A stretch of 64,000 nucleotides of DNA, taken from assembly GCA_012295275.1 (NCBI GenBank), contig CM022676.1, positions 4,154,001-4,218,000 of the forward strand, written 5' to 3'. A program made the translations under genes and the position numbers. Shown in pieces: positions 55,100-61,100 of this stretch (position 1 is its first letter; every line of letters starts with the position of its first letter). The notes beneath the pieces are model-generated. The model was given only the letters and a program-made list of their open reading frames with translations. It did not search any database and had not been told where the DNA came from. The stretch comes from Chrysomallon squamiferum (taxonomy: Eukaryota > Animalia > Mollusca).

Positions 55100-55146
55100 T
55101 CACATCTCTGTATCTTGTTGTACAGCCGCTGGCGCAGTCTGATTAT
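55100..55146 (-). CDS. G: terminal exon DNQTAPAAVQQDTEM*
   Basis: tttcag acceptor, TGA TAA, AATAAA shortly downstream. Confidence 0.78.
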
Positions 55147-58100
55147 CTGAAACATGCAATGAAATTTTCGTTTCTATAAAAAATTGTGAGGTGTAGACAA
55201 AACAACAATCGTGCTAACGTGTGTGTATGTAGACATATATAAACACACAAACACAATATTAATATAAAATAACTATTTAGTTAAGCTGTATATGAAAGAT
55301 AAATGGAATTAATATTTAGAATGTTTCTATTTTAACGCTACCTCATCAAATGGAAAATCGAAAAATTCGAAAATTTCGAAACATTTCGGATAAGGGTTTG
55401 TCAACTTATATATATATATATATATATATATATATATATATATATATATATACACGATTTATAACCGGAAAAGAAACAACTATATCTATCTATCTATCTA
55501 TCTATCTATCTATCTACCTCTCTATCTTTATATGAATGCCATGTTCCCATTCTTTATACATCATAACAGTAAGACAACCTTGTTGTTTTCTTTTGTGAAA
55601 GTGTCTGAATAAGTGTATGATTAGCAAATAATATTTATTTTGTTCCTTATCATTTATTAACATCAGTTCACTTACCATCAGGTATTAAGACGTCATATGC
55701 GAACTCATATCCTCTTTCCTCTAGAGAAGAATATGAATTCCATGATTCTTGAAGTTCTGTTGCTGGTGCAGTCTGATTTTCTGAAACATGGAATTAAATT
55801 ATGTTTTGTTTTATTTAAAAATTGTGATGTGCGGAGAAAACAATAATCGTGGTAACGTGCGTGTATATATATATATATATAAAATACACAAACACATAGA
55901 TACATACACACATATATAGATACATAAATATACATCGATGTAAGACTGTGGATGTGGCTGTGTATACTATATTTTACAACTGTTTCAAAATCATTTACAA
56001 AGTGTCTCTCTTCAAAATCTAGAACAATTTTAACATTTCAAACAAAGACACTTCTAGACAAACACATTTATCAATCTACTTAAAACTATTTCGAACATAT
56101 TTAGAATCTATTCTTTCTCAAAATCTGTAAAACATCTAATACTTCGGAACAACAAAAGGAAAAGAAAATACATTCTTTGCAATATAAATATATATATATA
56201 TATATATAATATTTCTGTACCTTCTATTGAATTAATTCGTAAACACGAGTTTTTACACCTGTATTAATCAAACTAAAATATCGTTGTTTTCATGAAAGGT
56301 ATGTCTGTGTGTGCATCTAAATCTGTAACGTACGTAAGTGTGTGTGTACCGATCTACCTATTAATTAATATGTAATTGTAAGGATGGGTCATTTGTCATT
56401 TAAAACAATTTTAACATAAAATAACTATCTACTTAAGCTACATATGAAATATAAATCGAATTAATATTTAGAATGTTTCTATTTTAAGGTTATCTCATCA
56501 AATCGAAAATCCAAAAATTCCGAAAATTACGAAACATTTCGTATAAGGTATTGTAACCTTCTATATATACTATTAAGAACCGGAAAAGAAATATCTATCT
56601 ATCCATCTATCTATCTATCTATCTATCTTCTTTCTTTTTTCGTGAAAGTGTCTGAATATACGTATGATTAACAAACAATACTCGTTTTCTTCTTTATCAT
56701 TTATTAATATCACTTACCATCAGGTATTAAGACGTTATATGCGGACTCATATCCTCTTTCCTCTAGAGAAGAATATGAATTCTCTGAATCTTGAAGTTCT
56801 GCTGCTGCTGCAGTCTCATTATCTGAAACATGGAATTAAATTATGTTTTGTTTTATTTAAAAATTGAAATGTGCGGAGAAAACAATAATCGTGCTAACGT
56901 GCGTGTATATATATATATATATATACACACACAGAAACACATAGATACATACATACAGATATAGATACATAAATATACATCGATGTAAGATTGTGGATGT
57001 GACTGTTTATATTATATTTTACAGCTATTTCAAAATCATTTACAAAGTGTCTCTCTTCGAAATCTGAAAACATTTTGACTTTCCATACATAGAGACTTCT
57101 AGACAAACATGTTTGTTAATCCACTTAAAACTATTTCGAACATATTTAGAATCTATTCTTTCTCAAAATCTGTAAAACATGTAACACTTCGGAACAAAAA
57201 AACGAAGTGAAAATACATTCTTTCCAATATATATATATATGTATGTATGTATGTATTTATGTATGTATGTATCTATGTATATATTTCTGTACCTGATAGT
57301 GAATTAATTGACAAGCACAAGTTTTTACACATATATTAATAAGACCAAAATATCGTTGTTTGCCTGTAAGCTATGTATGTGTCTGTATGTAAATCTGTAA
57401 TTTACGTATGTCTGTGTGTACCGATGTACGTATTAATTAATATATAATTGTAAGGATGGGTCATTTGTCATTTAGAACAATTTTAACATAAAATAACTAT
57501 CTACTTAAGCTATATATGAAATATAAATGGAATTAGTATTTAGAATGTTTCTATTTTAAGGCTTACTGATCAAATCGAAAATCCAAACATTCCGAAAATT
57601 CAGAAACATTTCGTGTAAGGTATTGTCACCTTATATATATACGATCTATCACCGGAAGAGAAATATCTATCTATCTATCTATCTATCTATCTATCTATCT
57701 TGTTTTTTTTTTTTTCGTGAAAGTGTCTGAATAAACGTATCATTACCAAACAATACTCGTTTTCTTCTTTATCATTTATTAATATCAGTTCACTTACCAT
57801 CAGGTATTAAGACGTCATATGCGAACTCATATCCTCTTTCTCCCAGAGAAGAATATGAATTCGCTGAATCTTGAAGTTCTGCTGCTGCTGCAGTCTGATT
57901 ATCTTAAACATGGAATTAAATTATGTTTTGTTGTATTTAAAAATTGTAATGTGCTGAGAAAACAATAATCGTGCTAACGTATATTTATATATATATATAT
58001 ATATATATATATATACACACACACAAACACATAGATACATACATACAGATATAGATACATAAATATACATCGATGTAAGATTGTGGATGTATAAATACAC

Positions 58101-61100
58101 AAATACATAGATGCATACATATACATCGATCTAAGAGTGTGTCTGTGTATTATATTTTACAGCTATTTCAAAATCATTTACGAAGTGTCTCTCTTCAAAT
58201 CTAGAACAAATTTAACATTTCATACAAAGACACTTCTAGACAAAGATATTTATAAATCTATATAAAACTATTTCGTTCATATTTAGAATCTAGTTTTTCT
58301 CAAAATCTATCTATCTATCTATCTATCTATGTATGTATGTATGTATGTATGTATGTATGTATATGAATGTATGTATGTATCTATGTATCTATGTATGTAT
58401 GTATGTATGTATGTATGTATGTATGTATGTATGTATGTATGTATGTATGTATGTATGTATGTATGTATGTATGTATGTATGTATGTATGTATGTATGTAT
58501 GTATGTATGTATGTATGTATGTATGTATGTATGTATGTATGTATATGAATGTTTATATATATATATGTATGTATGTATGTATATATGTTTATGGGGATTT
58601 CTTTTCGTGAAATTGTCTGAATAAGCGTATGGTTAACAAACTATACTCGTTTTCTTCTTTAGCATTTATTAATATCAGTTCACTTACCACCAGGCAATAA
58701 GACGTCATATGGGACGTCATTCCCTCTTTCCTCTAGAGAAGAATATGAATTATCTGTATTTTGATGTGCATTGCTGATTCTGAATTTGCAAACGTAAATA
58801 AAATATATTTCATATCCATTGATGCAATAATCCGAGAATCAGCAAAAGAATGCAAACACATACATACATACATACACACATACATACACACATACATACA
58901 TACATACATATATATATATATATACACATATATATATATATACACACAAAATACATAGAGATATACATAAGCACATTTAGACAGATGCACATAAGCACAT
59001 GAATTATAGTTTACGGAAAGAAAAATAGTAAAAAAGTAGAAATTAATTTACCTTTGTTGGTTCCAAGTTAAGTTCTTTTCTGCTGTAATAATAATAATAA
59101 TAATAATAATAATAATAATAATAATAATAATAATAATAATAATAATAATAATAATAATAATAATATAATAATAATAGAAACAGCAATAAAAATAATAATA
59201 ATAACAACAACAACAACAACAATGATAATAATAATAACCTTATCATCACCATGAGCATAGTAGTGTAGTAATAGTTTTAGTAGGATGAAGTAGTAGTAGT
59301 AGCAGTCACACTGATACTAGCTATTTCTATGTGTACAGTGTACTTATGTGCTTAAATCACTCTACTTGAATACTGACATAGTCATGAAACATTGTCAGCA
59401 TTATGCCTGTCTAAAATTAAATTTATCATTAAAAGTTCTTGTTCTTAGACAATATTTTTTACCTCAGCCATGTCATTATCAGGTGGCTGAAGTACACAGG
59501 TGGTCACAAAAACAGGTTTGATTACTCTGTGTAAGGTAATTGTGTAATGTAATCTTGATTTATCTCCTTTTTACTCTATGGGTAAGTGTAATTAAAATAC
59601 ATAATAAAATAAATAAACGAACATAGAACAAAATAAATATACAAAGAACAAACAAACATTAGTATGAAGCTATGAATAAACGAACGATCAAGTGGATGAA
59701 TTAATAAATAAATAAAGAATAGAAAATAAAATAAAAATAATCAATTAAAAAAAAGAAAGAAAGAAAGAAAGAAAGAAAGAAAGAAAGAAAGAAGAAAAGA
59801 AGGAAAGAAGAAAACAAACAAATAAAGAAATACTTCTTTTGTTTCGGACGTAGAGAAGAACGACAATGACAATGATAACGGACACAACAAGGAAACTTCC
59901 AAAACCGCTGCCAAATTCTTTTCCAAACTGACTGCTGTCTTCTACAGGGCCTGAAAATTCATTAATGAAAATAAAAACGTGAGATTAAGTTATTATATAC
60001 TACTCAAAATAAGTTAATGGTCAAAAACGTTTGTGCAAATAAAGATAAGCTGATATGCTGAAATTCTGACGACTAATGACAAATTATTTATTTGATGTCT
60101 CACAACCAAGAAACAAAAATTAAAATAACACTGAGGAATTTTTTGTCATTCTACAGTAATTTTGACGTGTTCTGATCGAAAATGTCCTAGTTCTTCCGAC
60201 CTAACAAGGCAAGAGCTGAACGTTTTGCTGCTGCAGGAAATTGGTCACTATCCTGGCACGATGGAATCGTGGGTTGTCGTCATGGAACCAAGCTCCATTA
60301 ATGATCTACAGAAGGGTTCTGTGATTGATGGGTGCGCCTACTCACACCATTCCACTTTCTCCTCCAACTGGTAGATGCTCAACAACGTTAACATCAGCAA
60401 ATCTAATTCCATGACGAAGGTAAACACGAGCCCGCCCATCACTCAACTAGAGAAGACCTGTGATTCATCTGTCATATGCTGCACTGGATATGACGTCTAC
60501 GCCGATGAAGTCGAGCGATTCTGTTAAGTCTCACTGTATGTTTCTGCTTGAATTCCATGAAAAGGAAATCTGAGTTAATTTTTAAAAATTCTAAATATAA
60601 GGGAAATGATTGCATGCCCCTTATGTCTTTAGTCCAGATGACGACACAAAGGTTGTTATTCTAACCGTATCTGCCCCCTTAATAAAAAAAAAAAAAGATA
60701 CTTCCAAAAAATAATTTTAAGAATGACTTCGACCTTAACTTCTTTTGAATTGTTTATTAATTATACTTCTTCGATAGATTAATAATTTGTATTTGCTGTT
60801 ATTAATATATCTTCAGAGAGTAGGTAATTATTTATTTGCCATAGTTAAGTTATCTTCAGTTAAAATGGTAACTTTTATTACTATTAATTATGTCTTCTGT
60901 AACAAACATGAACATATGCATATTACATAAAACATACTACATAAGCACACACACGCATACGCACGTAAATACACACAGATGGACACATATATACATAATA
61001 TATACATACATATATAAAAAAACACTTACATAGATATATATTTATACAAATTCATACTTGCATACATGCATATAGTTTACACTGGACATATCTTTCTATT

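Follow-up and report, generated by a model that had tools for sequence, protein, structure and literature searches.

Invertebrate immunoglobulin (Ig) receptors with one ITAM (immunoreceptor tyrosine-based activation motif) are already known from the oyster and from Hydractinia, and it is also established that ITAM multiplicity sets the strength of T-cell signals. Here we describe gene G, located on the minus strand of a 64,000-nucleotide stretch of the genome of the mollusc Chrysomallon squamiferum (assembly GCA_012295275.1, contig CM022676.1, positions 4,154,001 to 4,218,000; hereafter, the window, in the numbering of which all coordinates are given), that is predicted to encode an Ig receptor with four ITAM-type motifs in its cytoplasmic tail, each motif lying wholly within one predicted exon. 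What is apparently new here, as far as we could find, is a ligand-binding receptor with an ITAM count altered by tandem copying of a whole-motif exon, and the locus displays the putative steps together, namely, a single-motif last exon, the gain of a splice donor where the stop used to be, the build-up of arrays to at least four units, and a last exon from which the motif is deleted. Should the units not be spliced together, the locus would amount to an ordinary duplication in a mollusc receptor cluster.

The oyster receptor CgIgR is a single chain with five Ig domains, a transmembrane (TM) segment and one ITAM, and is reported to bind CgSyk and to promote phagocytosis (PMC6994640). Gene G similarly combines five Ig domains, a TM segment and a tail motif, a likeness of architecture only, and has four motifs versus one. 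The Alr genes of Hydractinia resemble gene G in that they are clustered Ig-superfamily genes accompanied by pseudogenes, with one domain per exon and a V-set domain first, and have tails with ITAMs or ITIMs (immunoreceptor tyrosine-based inhibitory motifs), which in Alr are alternatively spliced (bioRxiv 2022.03.04.482883; 2022.03.25.485889). Unlike gene G, the membrane-proximal domain of which scores as Ig, the Alr proteins mostly contain an Fn3-like spacer, and a tandem array of one-ITAM exons is not described for Alr in the available text of these two reports; an allorecognition role for gene G is unsupported by the present analysis. The FcoR proteins of Botryllus, which are Fester co-receptors, likewise belong to a multigene set of invertebrate receptors, with tail motifs that vary by allele and by intron retention, which introduces early stops; in contrast to gene G, they contain hemITAM, ITIM and core motifs and no repeated full ITAM spacing (PMC12582321).

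The ITAM adaptors of vertebrates have an acidic membrane residue, and their ITAM is split over two exons by an intron inside the first tyrosine module (PMC4536121). More than one ITAM per chain, as predicted for gene G, is present in CD3zeta and in Xenopus FcRgamma, which acquired its second ITAM via an extra exon and so offers a precedent in principle (PMC4536121; PMC4428620), and ITAM multiplicity amplifies T-cell receptor signals (PMC4428620). Gene G differs from CD3zeta, FcRgamma and DAP12 in that its chain includes an ectodomain, its membrane helix is uncharged and each motif is contained in one exon; the uncharged helix and the one-exon motifs rule out its membership in the vertebrate ITAM-adaptor family. 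The resemblance to CD3zeta drawn in the original prediction is an analogy only, the helix being uncharged, each motif being confined to one exon and the Pfam ITAM model yielding no match.

The closest relatives of gene G are gene models of the vent snail Gigantopelta aegis (XP_041372832.1, XP_041372833.1, XP_041346725.1 and XP_041373955/6.1) that carry the automatic name 'CEACAM1/5-like' or are annotated as uncharacterized. These models share with gene G a V-like domain and short Ig repeats, a membrane-proximal Ig domain, a TM segment and a YSSL-x8/9-Yxx-Leu tail, at 36-51% identity, and differ from it in that both tailed models contain one motif per tail and the multi-unit array is absent. 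According to a figure legend, a 'CEACAM5'-labelled family is among those expanded in G. aegis (PMC7895826), and we infer that this is the family of gene G; the main text of that article does not mention ITAMs, and the main text of PMC7142155 mentions neither CEACAM, nor immunoglobulin, nor ITAM. No description of an array with one ITAM per exon was found in the literature searched, in which subscription journals were thinly covered, and whole-motif exons that arose from a last exon and stand in tandem seem to be undescribed there.

Tail units and their relation to a terminal exon

As modelled, gene G consists of five Ig exons, a TM exon, a short juxtamembrane exon (J), four units that carry the motif and a last exon without it (T); its frame is open for 671 codons in 12 exons, all 11 introns have GT-AG ends and are in phase, and the modelled tail comprises 165 residues. 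Judging from splice signals and frame, the units are predicted exons, located on the minus strand at 58688-58779 (unit 1), 57798-57902 (unit 2), 56718-56822 (unit 3) and 55676-55780 (unit 4), with exon T at 55100-55146; by alignment and tree, exon T is another copy of this module, which has lost the tyrosine motif through deletion and ends in a stop. The four predicted copies of YSSL-x8-Y(D/N)VL are present on the minus strand at 58745-58701, 57855-57811, 56775-56731 and 55733-55689. All of them fit the ITAM spacing, Yxx[LI]-x6-8-Yxx[LI], with a spacer of 8 and the two tyrosines 12 residues apart, and an acidic residue is found at position -3 of the first tyrosine in two of the four (aspartate in unit 1, glutamate in unit 3), both as originally described, and in neither of the two Gigantopelta tails; units 2-4 contain a third tyrosine in the spacer. 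A degenerate pattern derived from the four copies produced 10 matches in the window versus none in 100 shuffles, an excess that is a sign of duplication and says nothing on function. When the residues of a unit were shuffled (200,000 trials), the motif arose in 0.17% of the cases for unit 1 and in 0.40% for unit 3, a result that, the units being copies, counts as one trial.

The donors of consecutive units are 890, 1080 and 1042 nt apart, in agreement with the proposed genomic repeat of about 0.9-1.1 kb. The characterization of the units as 105-nt exons of phase 1-1 applies to units 2-4; unit 1 is 92 nt long and of phase 2-1. Skipping of unit 1 leads to an immediate stop, and unit 1 is apparently obligatory because joining J to either unit 2 or exon T loses the frame, so exon skipping without a frameshift, which had been proposed for the array as a whole, would be possible for units 2-4 only. 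The weak AAG acceptor, also noted previously, is present at unit 2; it is followed by in-frame CAG acceptors 15-24 nt downstream, with an out-of-frame one at 8 nt, and it need not cause skipping of the unit because the in-frame sites would retain the motif. We interpret gene G, with about an even chance of being right, as a single-chain activating Ig receptor with serially spliced tail units that yield four predicted ITAMs and signal through a Syk/Shark-type kinase; that a multi-ITAM protein is produced from this gene seems likely from the sequence.

The units apparently originated from a last exon. In four paralogs in the window (B, C, F and H), the TM exon and J precede a 47-nt exon (K) that carries one tyrosine motif, after which comes a single paired-motif last exon. 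The units of gene G align to this type of last exon through the exon and into its 3' flank, and the GTAAGT donor of the units is located where the last exons of the paralogs have their stop. The donor is found in all nine internal units, 22 nt past the start of the second tyrosine codon; exon K of each of the four single-motif paralogs has a donor at the same distance of 22 nt, which is needed to reach the last exon. Unit 1 is a fusion of the acceptor context of exon K with the body of the motif exon, and exon T is kept downstream of the units, in phase. In a midpoint-rooted tree of 16 modules, from which the K exons were left out, the nine internal units formed one clade (support 100/99), separate from the last exons. 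In the Gigantopelta protein P0014, a motif resembling that of exon K precedes one paired motif close to the C-terminus, and this protein layout suggests that the single terminal motif is ancestral.

Exon K is of phase 2-1 (16528-16574 in B, 21869-21915 in C, 42843-42889 in F and 51307-51353 in H) and encodes a tyrosine followed by Asn-Val-Gly-Gln, and a similar motif is found in P0014. In B, C and F, it contains a YxN site, of the Grb2 type. Gene G and paralog A are without exon K and have unit 1 in its place.

The number of units varies among the related loci in the window: none in E, one in each of B, C, F and H, four in G, and at least four in A, which continues past the window edge; D is fragmentary. 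Units 3 and 4 of A share 103 of 105 nt, and pairs of units within G share 96-98 of 105. Unit 2 of G shows 101/105 identity (96%) to units 3 and 4 of A versus 88/99 (89%) to unit 2 of A, and the two arrays are therefore not simple collinear copies of each other. The pattern fits recent gain, loss or conversion of units. Branch support among the 105-nt units (84-89) is too low for the tree to order the duplications, and the one indel seen among the units of paralog A preserves the frame. The proposal that ITAM number is changeable thus finds signs in the paralog counts and the non-collinear arrays, but no allelic length variation was observed. The loci provide a natural series of 0, 1 and 4 motifs on near-identical membrane anchors, in which ITAM-number tuning could be studied outside vertebrates.

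Relatives, conservation and transcription

An HMM (hidden Markov model) scan of 1.84 billion representatives yielded 106 matches at E up to 0.001, the best relatives of gene G being the Gigantopelta models (E 1.5e-65 and 7.6e-39, with 50.6% identity over 338 residues and 35.8% over 397 residues) and the other named matches mostly molluscs. The homology between gene G and the Gigantopelta proteins spans the ectodomain, with a common TM start and tail motif. Both tailed Gigantopelta models retain the YSSL and the second Yxx-Leu, with spacings of 8 and 9, and their flanks and most of the spacer have diverged. On this evidence, gene G belongs to a family of mollusc Ig receptors with a conserved ITAM-type motif. 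Word-seeded protein searches were blank (0 of 148 for Ig domain 3, among longer proteins; 0 of 84 for Ig domain 4; 0 of 252 for alignment A1, near its length), which reflects a limit of sensitivity because the full HMM scan did find relatives. Among metagenome contigs, the unit pattern had no matches, and none of the 112 pattern matches to the V domain was confirmed.

We examined 123 proteins, that is, the 106 matches and 17 cluster members, of which 36 have a predicted membrane helix and a tail of at least 15 residues. One Yxx[LI]-x6-12-Yxx[LI] pair was found in seven of these 36 (six genes, two of the proteins being isoforms), from Gigantopelta (twice), Mya, Tegillarca, Ostrea and Mactra, and two or more pairs in none, the sample consisting of cluster representatives and automatic gene models, behind which multi-unit relatives could be hidden. 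The distant bivalve V-domain relatives P0023, P0025, P0091 and P0105 also end in one paired-tyrosine motif. These single-motif bivalve tails suggest a broad mollusc class of Ig-ITAM receptors.

Four sequencing runs matched the locus; three of them (X1, X2 and X4) are RNA, all from one study, with short contigs and low depth, and the fourth (X3), the kind of which is not on record, covers introns. In the stretch from Ig domain 1 to Ig domain 3, there are 24 contigs in X1, two in X2 and 11 in X4. The joint between domains 1 and 2 (63636/63340), with canonical ends, is present in three RNA contigs from two runs (2 + 1), the joint between domains 2 and 3 in one RNA contig, and loose contig ends at the boundary of domain 3, in two runs, resemble the start of the exon for Ig domain 4. 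Thus, the family is transcribed and is spliced at the predicted Ig junctions; gene G itself is not singled out because most of the RNA contigs are 85-98% alike to it.

Interpretations of the array

Several observations weigh against the serial splicing of the units into a tail with four functional ITAMs, and we consider them here together with the explanations that they favor. The first group concerns splicing. Read-through of any unit donor leads to a stop two codons later, and in the region of units 3-4 (55640-56860), where X1, X2 and X4 gave six, zero and one contigs, respectively, all less than 90% alike and those listed from X1 running into the intron, no RNA contig joins units or bridges the intron; the contigs being short, shallow and from one study, the missing joint is a weak negative. 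The original prediction missed that the units are duplicated terminal exons with a read-through stop, usually accompanied by AATAAA, which creates a real alternative to the four-ITAM product: each unit, by its sequence a duplicated terminal exon, could also end the mRNA. In that case, the units would be composite last exons, with the donor read through to the stop and the transcript polyadenylated at AATAAA, and the usual product would contain a single motif, or between one and four of them in a regulated series. Such an arrangement is compatible with the overlap between the unit donor and the ancestral stop, the homology of the sequence behind the donor to the 3' flank of the paralog last exons, the lack of spliced unit joints in the RNA contigs, and the presence of AATAAA 13-18 nt past the donor in seven of the nine internal units, compared with none of the four single-motif last exons at that place. 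Nevertheless, we find this explanation rather doubtful: the GTAAGT donor matches the consensus perfectly in all nine units, AATAAA is frequent in this sequence (3.1 per kb) and its seven copies stem from one event, exon T has been retained in phase, and a polyadenylation signal so near a donor is usually suppressed.

The second group concerns the motif itself. The Pfam ITAM model matched none of the four gene G units at E up to 10, nor did it match the Gigantopelta proteins, and in units 1 and 3 the second tyrosine also fits the ITIM. It is therefore conceivable that the tail is made as modelled and serves as an inhibitory or adaptor platform that recruits an SHP-type phosphatase or the single-SH2 proteins Nck or Crk. 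The fit of two of the four second tyrosines to [ILVS]xYxx[ILV], the presence of D/E at -3 in just two units and the third spacer tyrosine in units 2-4 point in this direction; a like ambiguity has been reported for the Alr tails of Hydractinia (bioRxiv 2022.03.25.485889), and CEACAM3 signals largely via one tyrosine and Nck (PMC7026191). Furthermore, the last exons of C (21478-21590), F (43160-43290) and H (51603-51715) have, two residues before the first tyrosine, an ITIM-type serine, where the gene G units have asparagine, a hint that some paralogs might be inhibitory and others activating while having similar ectodomains, although all three of these genes are disrupted. Yet, the asparagine in all four gene G units is outside the ITIM consensus, and the spacer of 8 (9 in one homologue) that is kept across species suits docking of tandem SH2 domains, so we rate an inhibitory or adaptor function as unlikely.

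The third group concerns selection and decay. Identity among the unit exons is 0.91 versus 0.87 and 0.93 for the flanking introns (21 pairs, seven units), and the ratio of nonsynonymous to synonymous differences (pN/pS) is 0.72 for five units versus 0.35-0.47 for the Ig exons; such tests among the units have low power. All 13 modules have kept the second tyrosine and 11 of them the first, with several neighbouring columns equally invariant, and among the young copies neither the donor nor the second tyrosine stands out in invariance from the adjoining columns. In paralog A, the first tyrosine is gone in two of four units (replacement by histidine in one case and a 6-nt in-frame deletion in the other), and the unit of fragment D is frameshifted. 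Thus, by sequence comparison, selection on the motif appears to operate across species and leaves no sign among the young copies; the check suggested with the original prediction, conservation of the tyrosines against their neighbours, comes out positive for Gigantopelta and negative within the window. Alternatively, the array might be neutral debris of a fast birth-and-death cluster, or partly a repeat assembly artefact, with gene G a young, unexpressed or unselected duplicate, the frame of which has not yet decayed. In line with this possibility, six of the other seven window copies are disrupted and the remaining one, A, is incomplete; the units also show no selection signal, and the gene G tail has no RNA contig. 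However, the units differ by 7-9% in the exon and have distinct introns, and hence are not assembly duplicates; of the 298 contigs from run X3 that match the unit stretch, 41 are at 99% identity or more; a second array is present in paralog A; and the pN/pS values of Ig domains 4 and 5 of gene G against A are 0.25 and 0.32. Neutral debris or an artefact accordingly strikes us as an improbable account.

Under the interpretation of gene G as an activating receptor with serially spliced units, the last exon would have been copied in tandem, and the copies joined in series by splicing at the unit donors. Clustering of the variable V domain by a ligand would result in phosphorylation of both tyrosines by a Src-family kinase, a tandem-SH2 kinase would dock on each tyrosine pair, so that up to four Syk/Shark-type kinases could be bound per chain, and the four ITAMs would amplify the activating signal. 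Unequal crossing-over between the 0.9-1.2 kb repeats would add or remove 35-residue units in frame, and signal gain could evolve through unit copy number. As a guess, by analogy with oyster CgIgR and CEACAM3, the ligand might be microbes or symbionts. An extended scheme, which we view as rather unlikely, is that each copy is either spliced onward or ends the mRNA, so that one gene would produce receptors with one to four ITAMs, and crossing-over would set the maximum for each paralog or allele. If correct, this would be two-level gain control of a fast-evolving V-domain receptor family, built independently of vertebrate CD3zeta, in a snail lineage the closest sequenced relative of which hosts endosymbionts.

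Ectodomain and paralog cluster

The five Ig domains of gene G are encoded on the minus strand at 63636-63938, 63080-63340, 62514-62825, 61929-62189 and 61406-61684, and the signal-peptide exon presumably lies past the end of the window. Domains 2 and 4, which are short and of the constant/I type, pass the Pfam Ig cutoffs (Ig_2, E 2.8e-09, and Ig_3, E 7.5e-09, respectively), and domains 1, 3 and 5 are below cutoff. Domain 2, at the edges of which the RNA splice joints lie, has carcinoembryonic antigen (CEA) as its best match in the Protein Data Bank (E 6e-14), followed by contactins and IgLONs, a generic Ig similarity. Domain 3 is a second V-set-like domain, with RNA contigs of up to 98% identity, and the membrane-proximal domain 5 (Ig_3, E 0.0017) has a similarity of 0.96 to an Ig cluster in the Atlas. 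The TM exon (59834-59950, 117 nt, phase 1-1) aligns with the Gigantopelta homologues and encodes a helix with zero charged residues; it is followed by J (59052-59082, 31 nt, phase 1-2), a length that J also has in A, B, C, F and H, with a mutated donor in C. We do not regard the conserved-looking segment at 59450-59570, located between TM and J, as an exon: J already connects TM to unit 1 in phase, and the segment contains stops or frame changes across the paralogs.

The original prediction of a variable ectodomain agrees with the properties of domain 1, which is modelled as V-set and is the most variable domain. Its Pfam V-set score is under the cutoff; a structural model built from five window copies, with a mean predicted local distance difference test (pLDDT) value of 90, had entries with antibody variable domains as the top Foldseek matches (template modelling score about 0.7), which supports a V-type Ig fold, and in the Atlas it is near unnamed clusters with few recorded members, mostly molluscan (0.96). 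The N-terminal IgV domain of vertebrate CEACAM proteins is typically devoid of the intrachain disulfide; by contrast, domain 1 of gene G has the B- and F-strand cysteines, as well as a second pair. Identity of domain 1 is 63/98 to E and 76/99 to H, with pN/pS of 1.0-1.4, compared with 0.25-0.73 for the other Ig domains of gene G in paralog comparisons; some of this divergence could stem from relaxed selection, both E and H being disrupted. The X3 contigs are thin over and skip 63774-63871, in the middle of the exon for domain 1, while covering its flanks, a pattern compatible with hypervariability of the central segment across many members of the family.

The window is AT-rich (GC content 24-35%), with many microsatellites, one gap of 200 N at 7314-7513, and duplicated blocks on both strands that were revealed by self-comparison. 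Mapping the exons of gene G back on the window identified eight related loci, A-H; a stop or frameshift is present in each of B, C, D, E, F and H, and the frame of gene G is intact. On the minus strand, paralog A (464-7050) comprises Ig4, Ig5, TM, J and at least four units and extends past the window start; paralog B (16168-19251) comprises Ig4, a frameshifted Ig5, TM, J, K and a single-motif terminal exon; paralog C (21478-24617) has the same layout as B, with a stop within the motif and the J donor mutated; and fragment D (26631-28080) includes a remnant donor, one unit and exon T, with no TM exon found in the window. On the plus strand, paralog E (35131-37839) consists of a signal exon, Ig1, Ig2, a TM exon ending in a stop, and exon T, and is without the tyrosine motif; paralog F (40280-43290) contains frameshifted Ig4 and Ig5, TM, J, K and a single-motif terminal exon; and paralog H (46186-51715) contains a signal exon, Ig1-4 with stops, TM, J, K and a terminal exon in which the second motif is without its hydrophobic residue.

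The block with E, F and H (35100-52000) is inverted relative to A, B, C, D and G, which creates long inverted repeats in the cluster. Unlinked copies of the signal-peptide exon are located at 8961-9032, 12144-12215, 13320-13398 and 32401-32491, and no Ig1 exon linked to them was found in the window; those at 9.0 and 12.2 kb are upstream of paralog A, beyond the N gap, which may conceal the missing exons of this paralog. Paralogs B, C and F each begin with a 3' remnant of the Ig2 exon (19798-19882, 25170-25203 and 39649-39733, respectively) and hence look like 5'-truncated duplicates.

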